From the NCBI GenBank assembly GCA_016215325.1, contig JACRJV010000019.1:9959-73958 (forward strand): a stretch of DNA of 64,000 nt, given 5' to 3'. The position numbers were made by a program, and so were the translations under genes. Below are positions 43,649 to 62,834 of this stretch, in pieces. The notes beneath the pieces were generated by a model that worked only from the letters and a program-made list of their open reading frames with translations, searched no databases and was not told the origin of the DNA. Origin of the DNA: Candidatus Uhrbacteria bacterium. GTDB lineage: Bacteria > Patescibacteriota > Patescibacteriia > JACRJV01. The stretch's first letter is position 1. Every line of letters begins with the position of its first letter.

Positions 43649-46758
<3,110 letters not shown>

Positions 46759-46793
46759 ATTAAAAGGCATGGAATACATCTATTCTCTTCAGT

Positions 46794-46920
46794 GTGGTCT
46801 TGGTGATCTCAAGCGGCATGGAACCACCTCTTCCCATCCCGAACAGAGTCGTGAAACGTGCCAGCACCGATGATACTTGGGTTAAACCAAGCCCTGGGAA
46901 CGTAGGCCATTGCCAAGACC
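46794..46920 (+). rRNA. rrf: 5S ribosomal RNA
   Basis: CCCATCCCGAACAGAGTCGTGAAACGTGCCAGCACCGATGATACTTGGG... with complementary ends tggtcttggtga / ccattgccaagacc. Confidence 0.8.
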
Positions 46921-51533: not shown

Positions 51534-52310
51534 TCAGTCGGTGATTGTTTCAAACTGCCCCGCAACGACGACCGGGGCAGTCAGCCGGGCAAGCGCTGCT
51601 TCGAGCACGGCGTTACCAATGCCGTCGTGGCCGTGCTCGTAGCGGAACATCGCCCTGGCAAGGGCGAACAGCCGCGGCTGGTTCACCTGGCCGGCCTGGA
51701 TGAGGCCGAGGTCCTGGTGGTCGCGGACGCCGGTAAACCGGCGAATCGTAGCCACGTAGCCGGATCGATCGTCCTCCACCGTGGTATAACGCGCCACGGT
51801 TTTGGATGGGGTCCGGAACCCGCCCTGGCGGTAGCGCACCAGGACGCAGTCCATCCAAGCGGCGACACCGTCTTCCAACGTCGCAAAGACGATGTGCCCC
51901 CGGCGGTCGCGGCCAACCTCGCCGGGCCATGGACCCTTGCGGCGAGGTTTAAGATTCCCGGGATTGTTGTTGCGCCAGGGAATCGTGGGCTCGTCGACCA
52001 GCCCGCTGCTGTGACGCGACCGCGATGGTGCGATGGTCGGGCTCTGGTCTTTTCGCACGGTCCTCGGGGTTGCGGACGCAGACTCCGCTTCCTGCCAAGG
52101 ATTGCACGCGCGAGAGTCGGGCGCCGTGCTGGCCGCCTGGGCAGCCGCCTTGGTCGTTGCACCCACCGTCGGGTCCTCCTCGTCCCACGGGCTGCACGAT
52201 CGCCCGTCGGCTTGGCTCTGGGGGTAGACGGGCTCGGCGCCCAAGACGAGTGCCGCAGTGACCACGGCGATCGAGATCAAAAGTCTCATCGCAAAACCTC
52301 CAAACATCAC
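51534..52310 (-). CDS. secreted hypothetical protein encoded on strongly GC-rich (likely foreign) DNA
   Basis: Signal peptide MRLLISIAVVTAALVLGAEP. The composition shift is visible (long runs like gccgggcaagcgctgcttcgagcacggcg). The antisense 307-aa ORF is Arg-rich junk typical of high-GC DNA. Confidence 0.5.
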   Translation of the reverse strand: MMFGGFAMRLLISIAVVTAALVLGAEPVYPQSQADGRSCSPWDEEDPTVGATTKAAAQAASTAPDSRACNPWQEAESASATPRTVRKDQSPTIAPSRSRHSSGLVDEPTIPWRNNNPGNLKPRRKGPWPGEVGRDRRGHIVFATLEDGVAAWMDCVLVRYRQGGFRTPSKTVARYTTVEDDRSGYVATIRRFTGVRDHQDLGLIQAGQVNQPRLFALARAMFRYEHGHDGIGNAVLEAALARLTAPVVVAGQFETITD

Positions 52311-52444
52311 CGGTTTTTGGTACTCAATTTTGTAGGTACTCTCAAGAAAAACGAACCGAGCAATATACCATTTTATTTCGAATTCGTCAACCTTTCGGAC
52401 TAATTTCGGACTAATTCAATACCTTTGCATCACCGAGAGCGACA

Positions 52445-52495: not shown

Positions 52496-53530
52496 TTACA
52501 ACTTGTACTGTTTTTTGAGCTTTTCCCGCAGTGGCCGCAGGGCATCCTGGTCCAATCTCCGTGCTCCTGAACGCGGCGCATGTTCCGTCATCCGCAGTAA
52601 TTCTTCTGCCTCTGGCTTGGTAAGATACACCACCTCGCCCAAGAGGTTCACGAGGCGATCAGCGGCAATGGCAAACCCATTGTACGTCGCACCGTGGGGA
52701 TTGCCGGGTCTTACCATGCGCCGGAGCTCACGCAATGCATCCTGTTTCTCATACTGCAGCGTGACGTCCTGGACTCGACCGTCATCGATGGCATTTTTAA
52801 TGCGCGGGTGAAGGTTGCGGTACCGCGTCTGGAAGCTTAGGAGCTTATCATCGGTTGGGAACGTCTGTAAATACTGTTGATAGGCACCCATCCACAACCG
52901 TGCCGCAGCGGCGCGCTCCGAACCAGACACGACCTGCATGGCGGGGTTGTTATATGTTTCCAACAAGGCAAACTGCCCCTCCAATGTGGCCTGCGCTCTT
53001 GCCCGTTCCTGCCGCAACCGATCCTCGCGTGTGGGGAACTCTGCCTGATCGAGCTCTTGGACTTTCTCTACAAGCCCGGGGATGTTCGGCAACATCACGA
53101 TCGACTTCTTTTCTTCACGGATCTGATTGATCAATCGCTTGATCGACTGTACAGAGACCATCGTCCGGGTCTCCGGGTCCCAAAGCGTACCCTTGCCAGA
53201 ACCCAATGCGGCAAATAATTCGACAAAATTATTGGCACGCTGGAATTCGGGAGAAAATGGAGGATTTTCTATCATTAAATCAGGGTCGGTCAACGCAATA
53301 ACCTTCTGCAGGGTACCATCGCCAGCATCTGATCGCTGAACAATCGCCTTACCAGAGTGTTCGTCGTAACCGACAATCGTCCACCCCTCCTCCACCGGCC
53401 GCTGCGGGTCGCCTTCTTTTCCCCGACGTACTTTCACAATGGGTCCTAACATGATCTCCGACGGTTTGCGGGCAGCGTCCGGGCGCTGGGGATTGGCAGC
53501 GACGATCTTCGATGTTTCAGCCGGGTGCAT
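52496..53530 (-). CDS. hypothetical protein (344 aa), function unknown
   Basis: A long ORF with coherent composition. It contains DPDLMIENPPF, but no SAM-binding motif is placed appropriately. Confidence 0.45.
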   Translation of the reverse strand: MHPAETSKIVAANPQRPDAARKPSEIMLGPIVKVRRGKEGDPQRPVEEGWTIVGYDEHSGKAIVQRSDAGDGTLQKVIALTDPDLMIENPPFSPEFQRANNFVELFAALGSGKGTLWDPETRTMVSVQSIKRLINQIREEKKSIVMLPNIPGLVEKVQELDQAEFPTREDRLRQERARAQATLEGQFALLETYNNPAMQVVSGSERAAAARLWMGAYQQYLQTFPTDDKLLSFQTRYRNLHPRIKNAIDDGRVQDVTLQYEKQDALRELRRMVRPGNPHGATYNGFAIAADRLVNLLGEVVYLTKPEAEELLRMTEHAPRSGARRLDQDALRPLREKLKKQYKL

Positions 53531-53846: not shown

Positions 53847-55436
53847 TCAACTACTAACGAAATTTACTGACAACTTTTTATAATACCGTTGCCGTTGCTT
53901 AAACTGCCTCTCGAGAAATGGAATTTGCGCATCACGGTAATCGATAATCGTCTTTTGGCTGCCAATATCTCTGAGTCGCCCGATATACTGAACGAGCTTA
54001 CCCTCGAATGCAAAAGGAAACGCCAATATCAAACAAGAAATTCCACGAATATCGATGCCCTCGCCAAAGAATTGTCCAGTGGACAAGATGACTCGATAAT
54101 GTCCCGACTCAATTTGTTTCAGCTTTGATGTTCTTGACCGAGCAGAGTCGTCCCCGGAAATAACGATCGTCTCGCACTTCCCCTTAAGATACAGGGCTAA
54201 AATTTCCAAATGTTCCTTTCGTTCGCTTAACACCAACAGTCTTTTGCCGTCGCTCACATTGCTCAAGATGTCTTCAATAATCATCTGATTCCTCGCTGTA
54301 TCGAAACAGACAACTTTTGCCAAGAGTTGAAAATTATCAGTGGTAAATTTAAATGGTAGAGCTAAAGTTGTTGTGTGGATGAGTACTTCCGGTGGCTGAC
54401 GTGAAAGTTCAGAGACTGGGGCGATATCAGAAGCTTCCATACGAGCGACGATGTCGCCGATATACACATAGATCAATTTTTCATCGTTGTGCTTTCGCTT
54501 TGGAGTCGCCGTCAGACCGTAGAGATATTTTGGATTTAACTCTGCAATGACTTCACGGAACGTTGCAGCCGGAATGTGGTGACATTCATCCACAATAATC
54601 GTTCCGAATGTATCCCGTAGCTCTGTGAGGTTGCCTTTGCGAGCCAAGCTCTGCAACAGACCGACGGTTATTTGCTTGCCCAATTTTTTCTTCGTTCCAG
54701 AATATTGGCCAATATGCGCTTTCGCAATCCCTAAAAATGTCTGGATTCTTTCAACCCACTGATCGAGCAATTGTTTGCGGTGGACAAGAATAAGCGCCGG
54801 TAGCTGCCTTCGGGCTATCAGTTCAAGGCCGATAACCGTTTTGCCGCTCCCGGATGGAGCAACAATGAGATTACCAAAACCGGCTCCGGTCAACGTGTCT
54901 TGATTGGGGAACAAGCGATCAAAACTGACTTCCTTTTCAAACTCAGAGACATGAAATGCTCTGCGGATCAGCTCAAGCGCGATTTGTCGGCTCTTGTAGC
55001 ATGGATAGGCTTCAGAAAAGAACATCCAGACATGACCGCCGTTGCCAGAGCGTGAACGCTCCAGATATGCAGAAAGTCCGACTTCCGCGCAAGCTACGCT
55101 AAAGGCTTTACTATCAGCGAGCCAATTCTCGCCATCAAAATCTGCCACAATAAAATACGATGTGTTGTCTGAGAGTATCGGATACATTCCGATAACGTGG
55201 CCTCCGAGGGGATGTTTTTTAACAACATCATTCGTTAGCGCTATCAGCTTCTTATATTCGAAATCTTTCATGGAGCCTCCGCGCCGCTTATGCGCCATGA
55301 ATTCATCCCAAATAAAATCATAGGCCGGACTGTATCCAGACCGGCCTTCTTTTTCCCATCGGCGAGCATAGACATCCGTACGCCCATGAAATAGCGACAT
55401 GTATAACTCAAGTTGTTGCTCGCTGATAACAACCAT
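53847..55436 (-). CDS. fusion protein: N-terminal archaeo-eukaryotic primase-polymerase (AEP/PrimPol)-like domain plus C-terminal superfamily-2 DEAD/DEAH-box helicase
   Basis: N-terminus: YFIVADFDGENW (DxD), RSRSGNGGHVWMFF (sG-G-H), SFDRLFPNQDTLTG (motif III-like). C-terminus: APSGSGKT (Walker A), IIVDECHH (DExH), LTATP (III), QYIGRLRD (VI). Confidence 0.65.
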   Translation of the reverse strand: MVVISEQQLELYMSLFHGRTDVYARRWEKEGRSGYSPAYDFIWDEFMAHKRRGGSMKDFEYKKLIALTNDVVKKHPLGGHVIGMYPILSDNTSYFIVADFDGENWLADSKAFSVACAEVGLSAYLERSRSGNGGHVWMFFSEAYPCYKSRQIALELIRRAFHVSEFEKEVSFDRLFPNQDTLTGAGFGNLIVAPSGSGKTVIGLELIARRQLPALILVHRKQLLDQWVERIQTFLGIAKAHIGQYSGTKKKLGKQITVGLLQSLARKGNLTELRDTFGTIIVDECHHIPAATFREVIAELNPKYLYGLTATPKRKHNDEKLIYVYIGDIVARMEASDIAPVSELSRQPPEVLIHTTTLALPFKFTTDNFQLLAKVVCFDTARNQMIIEDILSNVSDGKRLLVLSERKEHLEILALYLKGKCETIVISGDDSARSRTSKLKQIESGHYRVILSTGQFFGEGIDIRGISCLILAFPFAFEGKLVQYIGRLRDIGSQKTIIDYRDAQIPFLERQFKQRQRYYKKLSVNFVSS

Positions 55437-55455
55437 AGATTACAGAAAACGCCAG

Positions 55456-56427
55456 TCATCGCACATCTGTGCGGTCCAAAATTTTGAATCCGTCCATAAC
55501 AGCTTCACAGAGAAAATCTTCTAATTGGCTCTGGTCTTCTTTCGTTTGGGCCTTGTAAAGATAGGTGTAATAAAGTTGTTTTTGTTCCTGACGGATAATC
55601 GCGGGGGCAAAATTTGCATTAAGCAATATTGCATTCATGAGCAAACGGCCAACACGGCCATTCCCATCAGAAAAAGGATGAATTTGCTCAAATGTGCTGT
55701 GTACACCGGCAGACAACGCGATGATATCTTTTGTTTTTTTATTAATGCGAACCATAACTTCCGGTATTAATTTCGGGACACTGACATAATTCGCAGTCGG
55801 CAAATTTACGCCGGTGATTCTGACGGCGTGATTGCGATAGACTCCAGCATCCGGGCGGACTCCATTCATGAGAATGCTATGGAGCTTTAATACTAAATCC
55901 TCATCAATTTTTTCTTCTTTGGCGATATAGTCAAACAAGTAGTTAAGAGCTGTTTGATGATTTTTTGCTTCCAGTTGCTCGGTCAGACTTTTGTGAGGTA
56001 AGGCTACATTGTCAAAAAGAATCGCCGCAGTATCCGGTTCGGTCAATGTGCTCCCTTCGATGCTATTGCTATGGTATGTGAGTTTTAAGATAAATTGATC
56101 ACGAATATCAGGGTTGGCTATAATGTTATTTACAACATTTTTGTGCTCTCTCATTTTTTTTCGTAAGACGTTTTTTTTGGCGGTGAGCTGATCATCGGGG
56201 ATTATTTTCTGCCCCGTCACTTCCAAAAAGAGTTCATCAATGGATGCTTGCATCTTTGGCCTCGGGATGGACTTGCCAGTCCACCAGCTGTTAAAGGCAA
56301 CAAAAGATACGCCAAACTTTTCAGCTAACTTGGTTTGGGTTAAGCCGAGCATTTTTTGAATTATTTCTAATTTTTGTCGTATAGTCATAGGATTGTGTTT
56401 ATTCGTTAATCGACCATTTATTGACAT
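55456..56427 (-). CDS. Fic-family protein with N-terminal XRE-type HTH
   Basis: HTH (TIRQKLEIIQKMLGLTQTKLAEKFGVS) and Fic motif HPFSDGNGRVGRLL. The track ORF starts at a TTG (56454); ATG starts are at 56427 and 56388. Confidence 0.8.
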   Translation of the reverse strand: MSINGRLTNKHNPMTIRQKLEIIQKMLGLTQTKLAEKFGVSFVAFNSWWTGKSIPRPKMQASIDELFLEVTGQKIIPDDQLTAKKNVLRKKMREHKNVVNNIIANPDIRDQFILKLTYHSNSIEGSTLTEPDTAAILFDNVALPHKSLTEQLEAKNHQTALNYLFDYIAKEEKIDEDLVLKLHSILMNGVRPDAGVYRNHAVRITGVNLPTANYVSVPKLIPEVMVRINKKTKDIIALSAGVHSTFEQIHPFSDGNGRVGRLLMNAILLNANFAPAIIRQEQKQLYYTYLYKAQTKEDQSQLEDFLCEAVMDGFKILDRTDVR

Positions 56428-56434
56428 ATTATCA

Positions 56435-56448
56435 AACTTTATAAAGTT
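56435..56448. promoter_or_regulatory. Perfect palindrome AACTTTATAAAGTT at the 5' end of the fic gene (candidate autoregulatory operator)
   Basis: Visible; a second half-site, TATAAAGTTTGA, lies 20 bp upstream. Confidence 0.35.
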
Positions 56449-56695
56449 AGTCAATATATCAAGATTCTATAAAGTTTGAAATCTTGTCAAGTATACTTTA
56501 CAAGTAGTATAAAATGTAGGAAAACAAGAGCAATATCAGCTTGAAATGCATGATTCTCTTGTTACCAATCTATACTTGAAGATGTGAACGTATTGAAAAA
56601 CAGGGGGGAAACGCAATGGACGGCCCTAGTGGCCGCCCATGAAATCGCATCGCGATCTTCCCAAAATTCTGTTCAAATCGACGTTTGTTTGATTC

Positions 56696-56770
56696 TGGAG
56701 CGGGTAGCGGGAATCGAACCCGCCTGTGGAGTTTGGAAAACTCCCATAATAACCACTATATGATACCCGC
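56696..56770 (-). tRNA. tRNA-Gly (anticodon TCC)
   Basis: Reverse complement folds as acceptor GCGGGTA/TACCCGC, D-arm, anticodon stem GGAGT/ACTCC with loop TTTCCAA, T-arm GCGGGTTCGATTCCCGC, encoded CCA. Confidence 0.9.
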
Positions 56771-60178: not shown

Positions 60179-60853
60179 TTATGAATCAAAGATATCTTTT
60201 TCTAATTTTTTTGCCTGCGCAACAAAAAAATTCCTCCATTCTTCATGATCAATTGTTGTGATCATTCGCGGAAGATCCTCAACTTCGATCGCTTGCAGTA
60301 ACCGTGCTCCCAATTGTGCGGCATCAATATGCCAATCAAACTTGATTTTTGCTGCCTTGAGAAGATCGGCAAAGCTATATGAGAACGTTTGGAGAATAAA
60401 ATAAATGTCTATATAGTCACGTGATCGTGGCTTCATGACAATCGTATGCACCTTATTTACGGCAATATCGTAGCAACTATCAACAGTAACGCCGTGATGC
60501 CGTAACCCCTTCTCGATGCGTGGAAACGGATAATAGTTAAAATCGACTTTCAAAGAGTCTCCATTCGGGAATGAATAGAGGAATGTGTGAAGCCCAAAGT
60601 AGTTTTGATAATCAACACGTTGCGCGCCGATCTTCTGCTGAACCTTTTTTACAAACGGCCGCACCAAGGTAACATCGAACTCTTCCTCGCAAAACAAATC
60701 GATGTCTTCAGAGTATCGATGTTGAAGATAAAATTCTGCCAACGCTGTCCCTCCGGTGAGATAAAAACGCTGAGAAAATTTTTTTTCATCCCCAAATAGT
60801 TCTAAAAATTGCGTTTGCTCTTTGGTGAGAATGCTTTTGGGAGTCTTCCCCAT
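60179..60853 (-). CDS. AbiEii/AbiGii-family nucleotidyltransferase (type IV toxin-antitoxin toxin)
   Basis: FYLTGGTALAEFYLQHRYSEDIDLF matches the GGTAL...RxSxDIDL signature of the AbiEii (DUF1814) family. Confidence 0.65.
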   Translation of the reverse strand: MGKTPKSILTKEQTQFLELFGDEKKFSQRFYLTGGTALAEFYLQHRYSEDIDLFCEEEFDVTLVRPFVKKVQQKIGAQRVDYQNYFGLHTFLYSFPNGDSLKVDFNYYPFPRIEKGLRHHGVTVDSCYDIAVNKVHTIVMKPRSRDYIDIYFILQTFSYSFADLLKAAKIKFDWHIDAAQLGARLLQAIEVEDLPRMITTIDHEEWRNFFVAQAKKLEKDIFDS

Positions 60854-61265: not shown

Positions 61266-61814
61266 CTACTTTTGGGAAGCGTGCTCTTCCCTAAGTGCGG
61301 CGATGGCCACCTCGCCCACGACAGCCTGTGCGCGGACACACACTTCTTCCGCGATCGTCTGACTCTTGAGAACGGCCTTGATGATCTCGTCGGCGATCTG
61401 GGGCTCGCCGACGCCACACAATCGTGCGATGACTCGCTTCGTGGCCGGGCGCGAGTCGCCGAATCCGAATTTGAACAGCTCCAGCCGATACCCGCGCGAC
61501 TGCGGTGAGCTGAGCCAGTACCCAAAATGGACCGCCGCCGATGCCACAACAATGACGGCCGCCGCAAATGAGCGGTACTGATAGGCCATCACTCCGAAGA
61601 TGCCAAAGAACGGCACGACACCATACTGTACCATCCACTTGTGCAGCCGCTCGTTCCGGTCGAACGACGCAAACGTGACCATCAGTGAGGCGCCGAAAGC
61701 GGTCACCGAGACGGCGGTCACCGCCGCGAATATCCGCTCGGTGCTGTCCAACGGTGAGATGACCTGCAGTACCATACCCAACAGAACCATTACGATGTAC
61801 CAGAACATTTTCAA
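61266..61814 (-). CDS. hypothetical membrane protein on GC-rich DNA
   Basis: Four TM helices plus a C-terminal soluble region. Antisense ORFs are Arg-rich junk. Confidence 0.4.
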   Translation of the reverse strand: MKMFWYIVMVLLGMVLQVISPLDSTERIFAAVTAVSVTAFGASLMVTFASFDRNERLHKWMVQYGVVPFFGIFGVMAYQYRSFAAAVIVVASAAVHFGYWLSSPQSRGYRLELFKFGFGDSRPATKRVIARLCGVGEPQIADEIIKAVLKSQTIAEEVCVRAQAVVGEVAIAALREEHASQK

Positions 61815-61905
61815 TCAGTCCTCCTTTAAGGACTTGTGAGCACGCCAGACGAGGCGCGCTCATTAATGTTGATTCGACGCGACGTCATACACGACGGCCC
61901 AACCG

Positions 61906-62459: not shown

Positions 62460-62834
62460 ATGGGAAACATTCATTCATTCCGCGACCTTTTAGTCTGGCA
62501 AAAAGCACACCAGTTGGTGCTGGAAATATATCGTCTTACCAAGAAATTCCCTTCGAACGAAATGTTTGGCTTAGTCTCTCAGATCCGTAGGGCCACAGTC
62601 TCCGTTGCTTCCAACATCGTAGAAGGCTTTAACCGCTCCAGTGTTCAAGACAGTCTGCATTTCTACACCATGGCCCATGCGTCACTCGAGGAAGTAAAAT
62701 ATCAGCTGCTCGTCGCCCGTGACTTGCAGTACATTACTCAACAAGAATACAATCATACACTTTGTTTAGGAGAAGAAGTGAGTAAATTATTGCGATCCTG
62801 GATCAATAGCCAGAAAGAGAATACGAAGGCGTAA
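62460..62834 (+). CDS. four-helix-bundle protein (23S rRNA intervening-sequence protein / Avd family)
   Basis: FRDLLVWQKAHQLVLEIYRLTKKFP...EMFGLVSQIRRATVSVASNIVEGF...HFYTMAHASLEEVKYQLLVARDL is the classic family pattern. Confidence 0.85.
   Translation: MGNIHSFRDLLVWQKAHQLVLEIYRLTKKFPSNEMFGLVSQIRRATVSVASNIVEGFNRSSVQDSLHFYTMAHASLEEVKYQLLVARDLQYITQQEYNHTLCLGEEVSKLLRSWINSQKENTKA

Follow-up and report, generated by a model that had tools for sequence, protein, structure and literature searches.

The locus raises the question of what a gene joining an archaeo-eukaryotic primase (AEP, PrimPol-type) domain to a helicase is doing beside a Fic gene in a Candidatus Uhrbacteria genome. The window referred to below is the whole stretch of DNA that was analysed, 64 kb in length. 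An earlier note had described the fusion as uncommon and not tied to a known type, and had suggested either a cryptic mobile-element replication module or a phage-defence or toxin module. The reading preferred here, which is considered likely, is that the gene is a degenerate member of the IEE (IS-excision enhancer) family which would have arrived with an autoregulated-looking Fic gene as a two-gene cassette, was probably crippled by an internal deletion, and may belong to a pair with a joint role in conflict.

Protein and domain organisation

The ORF was found exactly at the position given for it in the earlier note, and every motif quoted there was recovered. The gene and its parts are as follows.

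53847..55436, minus strand: AEP-helicase ORF, 529 aa, IEE / AEP-TOTE family, with a 188-codon internal in-frame deletion

54867..55436, minus strand: truncated AEP (PrimPol) domain, residues 1-190, from the Pfam profile, the motifs and the alignment to IEE via the relative P0002

54864..54871, no strand assigned: deletion junction between codon 190 (L) and codon 191 (I), from the alignment with full-length relatives

53847..54866, minus strand: SF2 ATPase core, residues 191-529, from Pfam, the alignment, the motifs and the XPB match

Judged from its sequence, the 529-aa protein is a PrimPol-type AEP joined to an XPB-like SF2 ATPase and a member of the IEE / AEP-TOTE family. The proposed fusion of an AEP/PrimPol domain to an SF2 helicase-type ATPase is supported by Pfam, by sequence matches in the PDB and by Foldseek.

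In the AEP half, the motifs DFD (residues 99-101), SGNGGH (130-135) and SFDRLFPNQD (171-180) were read. The Pfam family PF22548 (AEP-TOTE) matches the protein with E 1.5e-62 and 211.7 bits (cutoff 27 bits); the match spans positions 2-188 of the 230 in the profile, the remaining fifth at the C-terminus having been lost to the deletion. The catalytic residues D99 and D101 (motif A), H135 (motif B) and D173 (motif C) are kept together with Y85, and correspond to D142, D144, H178, D216 and Y128 of IEE in the alignment via P0002. The three aspartates and the histidine are invariant across the family in a 44-sequence alignment. Among PDB sequences, CRISPR-associated Prim-Pol (CAPP) was matched with a profile E of 2.9e-16, and the window sequence itself matches 7NQD with E 2.5e-5. 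A model of an 87%-identical full-length relative gave Foldseek TM values of 0.79-0.83 to CAPP 7NQD and 7P9J, the fold match covering about 250 columns. The check by profile and structure comparison therefore upholds the AEP assignment. What stands of the 190-aa N-terminal AEP domain claimed earlier is its motifs and family; its boundary does not stand, since about 55 last residues of the fold are absent.

In the ATPase half, the motifs GSGKT (Walker A, residues 196-200), DECH (283-286), TAT (309-311) and QYIGRLR (483-489) were read, and motifs I, II, III and VI are present. Pfam ResIII and Helicase_C both match, ResIII over only positions 25-164 of its 164-position model. The top solved-structure match, by sequence and by fold, is the archaeal and eukaryotic helicase-translocase XPB (Rad25/Ssl2; PDB 6P4F, 5TNU, 2FWR), corresponding to residues ~250-717 of full-length relatives; the model of a full-length relative gave a TM of 0.67 to 6p4f_C across 482 columns. 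Full-length relatives have an N-terminal beta/alpha domain where XPB has its damage-recognition domain, and the family carries R-K-x-x-D after TAT where XPB has RED; this RK..D motif is kept in the window copy. Unlike XPB, the window gene is fused to an AEP polymerase, is without a Bax1-type nuclease partner, and no longer encodes a damage-recognition domain or a Q-motif helix; the NCBIfam XPB model scored 85.9 bits against a cutoff of 610 bits. The description of this part as a complete SF2 helicase is right as to SF2 (ResIII, Helicase_C, XPB as best match) and wrong as to complete, because the Q-motif helix is absent. The final ~8 codons of the ORF depart from the family consensus.

Internal deletion of the window copy

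The earlier note missed a large internal deletion. Relative to its 717-aa relatives, the window copy has a clean in-frame gap of 188 residues (564 nt) between GFGNL and IVAPSGSGKT, and the missing 564 nt are present in all full-length relatives. It is this gap that left an N-terminal domain of 190 aa, which is a product of truncation. Gone are the final stretch of the AEP fold (~55 residues), the whole XPB-type damage-recognition domain and, at the front of the ATPase, the Q-motif helix with part of strand beta1. A 6-nt microhomology, TTATTG, lies at both breakpoints in the relatives, and TCATTG stands at the joint in the window. Thirty-seven columns that are at least 97% conserved were removed, including the invariant Q-motif glutamine. 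With equivalent alignments, AF2 gave the window copy a pLDDT of 72.3 and a pTM of 0.41, versus 84.8 and 0.64 for a full-length relative, and junction residues 188-198 of the window model had a pLDDT below 50.

Most probably the 529-aa protein either has no activity or is badly hampered in bridging ends and in coupling ATP to the handling of DNA. It does retain the three AEP catalytic motifs and every core ATPase motif, and the isolated AEP domain of IEE (residues 1-288) still polymerises (Calvo et al.; PMC9943667), so the window copy may keep some activity. None of the 193 retained highly conserved columns shows a deviation, and there is therefore no sign of relaxed selection; it follows that the deletion is very recent, that the short form is still selected, or that the gap is an assembly or population artefact. 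No match to the junction 26-mer or to the flank 24-mer was found in JGI metagenome contigs. Elsewhere in the family about 11 of ~57 evaluable copies are disrupted, and internal deletions or truncations comparable to that of the window copy occur at loci L061, L050, L068 and L069. That roughly one copy in five is broken suggests that the AEP-helicase gene is costly or dispensable.

Family, distribution and relationship to IEE

The architecture is not uncommon: the AEP-helicase fusion comprises at least 8000 protein clusters and occurs in 876 of 5426 complete E. coli genomes. Nor is it without a known type, as is evident from PF22548, from the RefSeq name of the E. coli homologue ('TOTE conflict system archaeo-eukaryotic primase domain-containing protein'), from the CAPP survey (PMC8211822) and from the characterised IEE (PMC9943667). 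Full-length homologues were found in 98 plasmid records, in none of 50,697 phage records, and in about 5 of 2.9 million viral contigs; in the plasmid contexts examined, plasmids with an AEP-helicase gene encode their own RepA.

The relatives compared, from Patescibacteria and Ignavibacteria, share 81-89% amino-acid identity. The 717-aa relative P0002, 87% identical to the window protein, aligns end-to-end with the 786-aa protein of E. coli O157:H7 (34% identity, E 2e-131), which has the IEE residues Y128, D142, D144, S171, Q175, G176, H178 and D216; IEE matches PF22548 with E 1.7e-98. In E. coli the gene is preceded by yfjI (DUF3987) and an inovirus Gp2-type gene, both oriented as it is, and sits in the CP4-57-type island slot where K-12 has the anti-phage pair AbpAB. 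E. coli YfjK/AbpB was considered as a family member and rejected (BLASTP E 0.11, no AEP domain); it merely occupies the equivalent island slot.

The AEP domain of IEE from E. coli O157 is a Mn2+-dependent, error-prone DNA polymerase, and its SF2 part, a DNA-dependent ATPase, holds on to duplex DNA without unwinding it (PMC9943667). IEE bridges two 3' overhangs at microhomologies of at least 4 bp and extends them, which is microhomology-mediated end joining, and in cells it promotes transposase-dependent IS excision and adjacent deletions (PMC9943667). IS3/IS1/IS30-type transposases are present in 94.75% of IEE-positive E. coli assemblies (PMC9943667).

IEE and the full-length relatives are alike in the order of AEP domain, middle domain and SF2 ATPase, and share DxD, H, D, the tyrosine at the ribose-sensing position, the Walker A lysine, DExH and motif VI; IEE and the window family are also alike as horizontally spread genomic-island cargo. 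The window copy differs in lacking the 188 residues that run from the last part of the AEP into the first part of the ATPase, and so departs from the full-length architecture. The Patescibacteria clade is without the ~45-residue N-terminal extension and the Cys-rich insert (CANEW...CGKPRIKCGDC) of IEE. The window gene is paired with Fic, whereas E. coli IEE is not next to a Fic gene, and unlike IEE it has no IS or transposase in its 64-kb window.

CAPP provides the closest solved AEP structures to the window family (PDB 7NQD, 7NQF, 7P9J), and among CAPP proteins it is above all the 'CAPP-Helicase' type that the window family resembles. The PADLOC model for cas-associated PrimPol matches the window protein with E 1.5e-54, and the NCBIfam CAPP model scored 61.8 bits against a 200-bit cutoff. 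Helicase fusion is the most prevalent architecture of non-CRISPR CAPP homologues in mobile elements (Zabrady et al. 2021, PMC8211822). Unlike CAPP loci, the window locus has neither a CRISPR array nor cas1/cas2: no CRISPR repeat array was found in the window, and no cas gene among the neighbours.

The window AEP also belongs to the Pfam family named after TOTE conflict systems, a name given as TPR, OB, TBP, Effector (Aravind, Iyer and Burroughs 2022, as cited in PMC12458937). No TPR, CSD/OB or TBP gene was detected by Pfam in any ORF within ~6 kb on each side, and these partners (TPR, OB/cold-shock, TBP) are likewise absent from all related loci with readable neighbours. The TOTE label for the window gene is domain-based only.

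Fic gene and control region

The neighbouring gene, its control region and the surrounding features are as follows.

55456..56388, minus strand: HTH(Xre)-Fic gene, 310 aa from the ATG at 56388, from Pfam, PADLOC and motifs

56426..56482, minus strand: promoter/operator region of the cassette with -35, -10 and two palindromic boxes

56449-56454, minus strand: predicted -35 element of the cassette promoter, TTGACT

56426-56431, minus strand: predicted -10 element of the cassette promoter, TAATAT

56435-56448 (perfect) and 56464-56477 (degenerate), minus strand: palindromic box AACTTTATAAAGTT, putative operator

53863..56482, minus strand: Fic and AEP-helicase cassette, horizontally shared extent of 2.6 kb, from homology limits and GC

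56696..56770, minus strand: tRNA-Gly(UCC), 3' end toward the cassette, ~210 nt from the cassette edge

A longer, TTG-started version of the Fic ORF extends to 56454. The Fic motif is intact (HPFSDGNGRVGR, residues 237-248 of the 310-aa protein, with the core HPFSDGNGR) and agrees with HxFx(D/E)GNGRxxR. The protein matches Pfam Fic (E 4.8e-19) and, in PADLOC, PDC-S04 (E 4e-44) and SoFic (E 3e-29). The earlier impression of an autoregulated-looking HTH-Fic neighbour is supported by the intact motif and the operator-like palindromes, and the Fic stop codon lies 19 nt ahead of the AEP-helicase ATG. Both palindromic boxes are kept in all nine of the loci with a 310-aa Fic.

SoFic is a toxin that acts in abortive infection through AMPylation (PMC12249575). 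The window Fic resembles SoFic and PDC-S04 in its HPFxDGNGR motif and in an internal inhibitory S-x-x-x-E-G, present here as SNSIEG, and is probably an AMP-transferase of this defence-candidate type. It is unlike SoFic in its N-terminal Xre-type HTH and shares only ~24-30% identity with SoFic-like partners at other loci. EcSofic is paired with the 47-aa antitoxin AS1, whereas the window Fic is followed by a polymerase-ATPase of 529 aa (717 aa when full-length).

Fic pairing across related loci

A Fic-motif ORF was found near the AEP-helicase gene at 21 of 63 related loci, and none in 892 kb of control DNA. Fic lies immediately upstream on the same strand at 13 loci, and upstream with one gene between at 5 more. 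Clustered at 45% identity, the partners form at least 8 groups, and AbiEii toxins fill the same upstream slot at 5 loci. The proximity of Fic at a third of the loci, its nearly constant position upstream on the same strand and the diversity of its subfamilies point to a real functional link. About two thirds of the loci compared are without Fic, and Fic is intact at three loci where the AEP-helicase gene has decayed (L068, L069, L076), so the two genes may be independent cargo that is merely co-localised. No conserved third gene was found at the related loci, the second-tier neighbours being heterogeneous. A role of the AEP-helicase as an antitoxin was rejected, as an intact Fic persists beside a partner cut to ~100 codons. 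The recurrent pairing with Fic may be new; the architecture itself is ordinary.

Insertion site and surroundings

The cassette has a GC content of 0.43 versus 0.51 in the window, and its DNA is 73-79% identical to cassettes of Saccharibacteria, Vogelbacteria, Parcubacteria and other Patescibacteria. The 3' ends of tRNA or tmRNA genes adjoin cassettes at many loci, and the tRNA-Gly gene is the presumed insertion hot spot here. The low GC, the position on the 3' side of a tRNA gene and the match of the Fic to PDC-S04 and SoFic agree with the earlier view of horizontally acquired conflict or mobile-element cargo. No convincing att-type direct repeats or terminal inverted repeats were found round the cassette.

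The ORFs within ~6 kb on either side encode, by Pfam, thioredoxin reductase, glutaredoxin, PGI, DUF1622, DUF1761, PLD, HU and RmuC, and the genes flanking the cassette are housekeeping genes. Neither a tblastn search with eight recombinase queries nor a PHROGs scan of 48 ORFs detected a transposase or integrase in the 64-kb window. The known cellular role of IEE needs IS transposases, and their absence from the window counts against the proposal made here.

A conserved element of ~130 nt lies downstream of full-length copies and is absent from the window. The sole structure found in it is an 11-bp hairpin overlapping the stop codon; with no Rfam match and essentially no covariation, a structured RNA was rejected.

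Interpretation

In the preferred reading, the HTH-Fic and AEP-helicase genes would have arrived in the Candidatus Uhrbacteria genome as a promoter-to-stop two-gene cassette on the 3' side of tRNA-Gly. The window copy has lost 564 nt in frame between short direct repeats, and with them the C-terminal portion of the AEP fold, the entire damage-recognition domain and the Q-motif helix of the ATPase. With the AEP-helicase impaired, Fic, which is intact, would alone remain fully functional in the cassette. Where the cassette is full-length, Fic and its polymerase-ATPase neighbour might act together in conflict or abortive infection. What is new is that the window copy is without exactly 188 codons of the canonical ~717 aa and is probably crippled.

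The deletion itself could be other than biological, the true gene being a normal 717-aa member and the gap a product of metagenome assembly or a minor population variant in the MAG. The DNA comes from a MAG, the 529-aa sequence is alone in its cluster and was seen on one contig, the exact protein was not found in the assembly/contig index, and unchanged residues at 193 conserved columns are expected of an intact, selected gene. Assemblers, however, do not normally collapse unique sequence between 6-nt repeats, and the gap keeps the frame exactly and has microhomology at its edges, like real slippage or MMEJ deletions. The window copy also carries a second rearrangement, in which its final ~8 codons are divergent and the conserved 3' element has been lost, and comparable lesions exist at the four other loci named above; an artefact is regarded as unlikely. 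Far less probable still is that the gene product serves as the replicative primase-helicase for some cryptic plasmid, phage or integrative element. AEP-helicase fusions from other families do take part in replicating mobile elements, the E. coli gene stands behind yfjI and the inovirus Gp2-type gene, and plasmid records hold full-length homologues. The earlier suggestion of a replication module nevertheless finds little support, as the helicase is XPB-like SF2 and not SF3/SF4, IEE does not unwind DNA, full-length homologues are absent from the phage records and almost absent from the viral contigs, carrier plasmids have their own RepA, and no rep, integrase or other gene of such an element accompanies the window cassette.

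An active two-gene anti-phage or toxin module, the 529-aa form included, would have the polymerase-ATPase sense or process invading DNA and Fic act as the AMPylating effector. It would account for the recurrent, ordered and tightly spaced pairs with many Fic subfamilies, for AbiEii in the same slot, for the SoFic and PDC-S04 matches, for the E. coli gene in the slot of the AbpAB pair, for the 'conflict system' filing in Pfam and RefSeq, and for the perfect conservation of what the short form retains. This reading is nevertheless judged improbable: the only biochemistry of the family points to end-joining and IS excision and leaves a defence role putative; PADLOC has no system model for the helicase protein itself; the window copy is without invariant residues and a whole domain; and Fic persists alone after its partner decays. 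There is a small chance that Fic and the IEE-type polymerase-ATPase form an undescribed two-gene module. This might be a conflict system coupled to a toxin, with Fic triggering or monitoring DNA events that the end-joining polymerase would sense or repair. It might also be a cassette that lacks an integrase and uses its own microhomology-joining enzyme to insert beside tRNA genes. The short form would then perhaps be a selected, functional derivative.

For the degenerate IEE-family member favoured here, the headline claim of an unusual orphan PrimPol::SF2 fusion fails: this is a large family that has names in Pfam and RefSeq and a biochemically characterised member in IEE. Here a deletion flanked by microhomology has struck the very gene that codes for a microhomology-joining enzyme. 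Conserved relatives of IEE move among ultra-small Patescibacteria genomes with no IS in sight, and IS excision as the primary role of the family is thereby put in question. A testable lead to the cellular function of the family lies in its ordered pairing with nucleotidyl-transferase toxins, diverse Fic proteins and also AbiEii.

Domain architecture and family assignment

The AEP-helicase gene was called as a 529-aa ORF on the minus strand (53847..55436). In profile searches residues 8-194 matched Pfam PF22548 'AEP-TOTE' (E 1.5e-62), residues 188-314 ResIII and residues 387-487 Helicase_C; the PADLOC cas-associated PrimPol model also matched (E 1.5e-54). The closest solved structures are the Prim-Pol domain of the CRISPR-associated Prim-Pol CAPP for the N-terminus (PDB 7NQD/7NQF; E 2.9e-16 by profile, 2.5e-5 by single sequence) and archaeal XPB for the C-terminus (E about 1e-24). 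The AEP-to-SF2 fusion proposed in the earlier note is correct, the Pfam, PADLOC and PDB matches lying far beyond chance, and all motifs quoted there occur in the order stated. Contrary to the earlier claim, the helicase is not complete, its ResIII match starting at model position 25 of 164; the AEP match likewise stops at position 188 of 230. The observation was real, yet misdescribed.

The architecture had also been called uncommon. It is not rare: the homology search returned at least 8000 clusters, with a canonical length of ~717 aa and 81-89% identity to the window protein, and full-length homologues are present in 876 of 5426 complete E. coli genomes and in 98 plasmid records. A distant proteobacterial member used as query again gave at least 8000 clusters, of proteins of ~808 aa, and the AEP domain alone gave 3915 representatives of 50%-identity clusters at E <=0.001 (265 at E <=1e-30).

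A 786-aa protein of E. coli O157:H7 aligns end to end (34% identity, E 2e-131) with P0002, a 717-aa full-length relative 87% identical to the window protein, and has all the residues named for the IS-excision enhancer IEE by Calvo et al. 2023 (PMC9943667), namely Y128, D142, D144, S171, Q175, G176, H178 and D216. The window gene, whose architecture the earlier note called not tied to a known operon type, therefore belongs to the IEE family. The AEP domain of IEE is an error-prone DNA polymerase that depends on Mn2+; IEE is also a DNA-dependent ATPase (K451) with no unwinding activity, joins 3' overhangs at microhomologies of at least 4 bp, for which both domains are required, and in cells gives transposase-dependent excision of IS3, IS1 and IS30 elements and adjacent deletions (PMC9943667). 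Among the non-CRISPR homologues of CAPP that mobile elements carry, fusion to a helicase is the commonest arrangement (Zabrady et al. 2021, PMC8211822). The RefSeq product name in E. coli is 'TOTE conflict system archaeo-eukaryotic primase domain-containing protein'; TOTE is given as TPR, OB, TBP, Effector in PMC12458937. Unlike TOTE systems, the window gene has no TPR, OB or TBP neighbours, and none were found near relatives with readable neighbourhoods; the TOTE label on it is a domain name only. The IEE family is known and in part characterised; the window gene is a new, degenerate member of it.

Internal deletion

The 529-aa form was a singleton in the homology search, from the Candidatus Uhrbacteria MAG. 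Aligned with its relatives it lacks 188 residues in a single clean gap, flanked by '...GFGNL' and 'IVAPSGSGKT...' and equivalent to P0002 residues 191-378 and to exactly 564 nt of missing DNA. The hexamer TTATTG stands at both breakpoints in full-length relatives, which is the signature of slippage or microhomology-mediated joining. The AlphaFold model of P0002 (pLDDT 84.8) is organized as follows.

Domains of P0002 in the AlphaFold model
up to about residue 246: AEP domain, followed by a short linker
258-345: beta/alpha domain
364-372 and 376-380: opening helix and strand beta1 of the first RecA-like domain

In Foldseek comparisons this model aligned with CAPP Prim-Pol over about 250 columns (TM 0.79-0.83) and with the whole XPB chain 6P4F_C over 482 columns (TM 0.67), the latter alignment placing the middle domain in the position of the XPB damage-recognition domain. 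Judged from the model, the deletion removes some 55 residues at the end of the AEP fold, all of the damage-recognition-type domain, the Q-motif helix and part of beta1. Lost with it are 37 columns whose conservation in 119 close homologues is at least 97%, including the family-invariant I191, P194, Q196, Q219, W220, R323, G324 and Q364. The window protein, modeled from an equivalent alignment, reached only pLDDT 72.3 and pTM 0.41, much worse than P0002, and scored below 50 at the joint (residues 188-198).

None of the 193 retained conserved columns is substituted, which counts against simple decay; the deletion would thus be of recent date, or one that selection still tolerates, or artefactual. 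An artefact is improbable: the last ~8 codons of the window copy also diverge, and a 3' non-coding element kept by many relatives is absent from it, a second rearrangement that makes assembly error less likely. Stops, frameshifts or deletions disrupt about 11 of ~57 evaluable family copies; sequencing errors in long-read MAGs may account for part of the frameshifts. A member in an Opitutales MAG (L061:5968-7478) has a comparable internal deletion, with a frame change: roughly residues 167-427 of the ~808-aa form are gone, a stretch that again extends from the tail of the AEP domain to where the ATPase begins.

The 3' element, ~130 nt long, lies directly 3' of the stop codon in many full-length copies. 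It opens with an 11-bp hairpin, the last four codons (AAATTTGCTTAA) forming the 5' arm. It shows almost no covariation and gave no match in Rfam.

Positions of the 3' element (L numbers, here and below, are loci with related genes)
L014:3830-3955; L017:8167-8292; L018:8167-8292; L019:8189-8314; L043:8157-8282
L068:6327-6433, after the truncated copy there

The Fic and AEP-helicase cassette

The Fic gene lies 19 nt from the AEP-helicase gene, in an islet with a G+C content of 0.43 against 0.51 for the window. DNA homology shared with loci of Saccharibacteria, Vogelbacteria, Parcubacteria and other Patescibacteria ends at 53863 and 56482, thus running from ~90 nt 5' of the Fic ATG to just short of the helicase stop codon. 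The 90 nt upstream of Fic contain a predicted sigma-70-like promoter and two AACTTTATAAAGTT palindromes, kept in all nine loci with the 310-aa HTH-Fic; the earlier description of Fic as autoregulated-looking gains support from this conservation, which would suit control by the Xre-type HTH. The window Fic is intact: both the inhibitory motif SNSIEG and the catalytic motif HPFSDGNGRVGR are present. Among defence candidates it matches PDC-S04 (E 4e-44) and SoFic (E 3e-29).

The cassette lies on the 3' side of tRNA-Gly(UCC), between housekeeping genes. Related cassettes adjoin the 3' ends of tRNA-His, tRNA-Gln, tRNA-Ser, tRNA-Tyr or tmRNA genes, recurrently within a few hundred nt. The 64-kb window yielded no integrase, transposase or CRISPR array; the window cassette, at least, has no integrase.

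tRNA and tmRNA genes near cassettes
window 56696-56770; L014:419-492; L017:4758-4831; L018:4824-4895; L033:8372-8443
L035:4212-4297; L053:8249-8337; L066:2561-2634; L044:9282-9689

Fic-motif ORFs occur in the flanks of 21 of 63 loci from species-representative genomes, against none in 892 kb of control DNA. Fic is directly upstream on the same strand in 13 (gap 1-27 nt in most of these). In five more it is also upstream, but separated by a single gene, either a 128-aa ORF or a PIF1-like helicase. Such additional genes suggest three-gene variants of the module. The Fic-upstream arrangement also occurs in one of five full-length viral-contig homologues.

Additional genes directly upstream of the AEP-helicase gene
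L035:1602-1985; L075:5600-5983: 128-aa ORF directly upstream, between it and Fic
L063:4272-5984; L066:4260-5975: ~571-aa PIF1/RecD-like helicase with HTH_40, between it and Fic
L045:4295-6004: the same type of helicase directly upstream, with no Fic found nearby

The Fic partners form at least eight clusters at 45% identity, whereas the AEP-helicases of the same loci are far more alike, which indicates that the pairing has formed or re-formed repeatedly. In five loci the slot of Fic is occupied by AbiEii nucleotidyl-transferase toxins, and the neighbour survey found no conserved third gene among related loci. The two genes are separable: Fic is absent from about two thirds of the loci, and E. 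coli IEE also has none, whereas the window AEP-helicase adjoins one. In L068, L069 and L076 Fic is intact beside a partner shrunk to ~100 codons, which rules out the AEP-helicase as an essential antitoxin of Fic.

Other features of the window

43650-46759: 23S rRNA
46799-46918: 5S rRNA
52496-53530, minus: 344-aa ORF directly downstream of the cassette
60179-60853 and 61291-61863, both minus: AbiEii-family nucleotidyl-transferase toxin gene with upstream ORF
62460-62834, plus: four-helix-bundle protein, 124 aa

The 23S rRNA match spans 3110 nt against a 2925-nt model, so that one or more insertions are probable; the window has no 16S rRNA gene. The AbiEii-family gene (Pfam E 2.3e-19) is ~4.7 kb from the Fic cassette, and the 190-aa ORF upstream of it, without a Pfam match, is possibly an AbiEi-type antitoxin. 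The 124-aa protein matched two models, '23S rRNA intervening sequence protein' at E 2.1e-37 and bAvd-like at E 9.6e-12, with no reverse transcriptase seen beside its gene. A sharp high-GC patch (51534-52403; 0.60-0.68 versus 0.51) has long overlapping ORFs on both strands, including a 258-aa minus-strand ORF with a weak endolysin-like PHROG match (phrog_873, E 1e-15) and none in Pfam. The 344-aa ORF has host-like GC, lies outside the shared cassette and gave no match in Pfam, NCBIfam, PADLOC or PHROGs.

Functional considerations

Full-length proteins would act like IEE: the SF2 module would hold duplex DNA, the damage-recognition domain would bind distorted or broken DNA, and the AEP domain would pair and extend 3' ends at microhomologies. 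A replicative role, which the earlier note had suggested, is unlikely. Full-length homologues are absent from 50,697 phage records and number only ~5 in 2.9 million viral contigs, the helicase is of the non-unwinding XPB type, and plasmids carrying the gene encode RepA separately.

In islands of the int-alpA-yfjI-yfjJ type, O157:H7 IEE (L079:9001-11361) directly follows a yfjJ-like gene; the same slot in K-12 CP4-57 (L080:8352-12154) holds anti-phage abpB/abpA (yfjK/yfjL) on the opposite strand. YfjK is no IEE homologue. This island slot, the Fic and AbiEii partners, the islets beside tRNA genes and the 'conflict system' label of Pfam and RefSeq make it plausible that the full-length Fic/AEP-helicase pair acts in conflict with invading DNA. 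Of all this, only the recurrent coupling to Fic may be new.

In the window copy the catalytic carboxylates and the P-loop are retained, but the protein is probably inactive, having lost structural core elements of each enzymatic module as well as the intervening domain. The function left to the window cassette would be that of an autoregulated Fic AMP-transferase.
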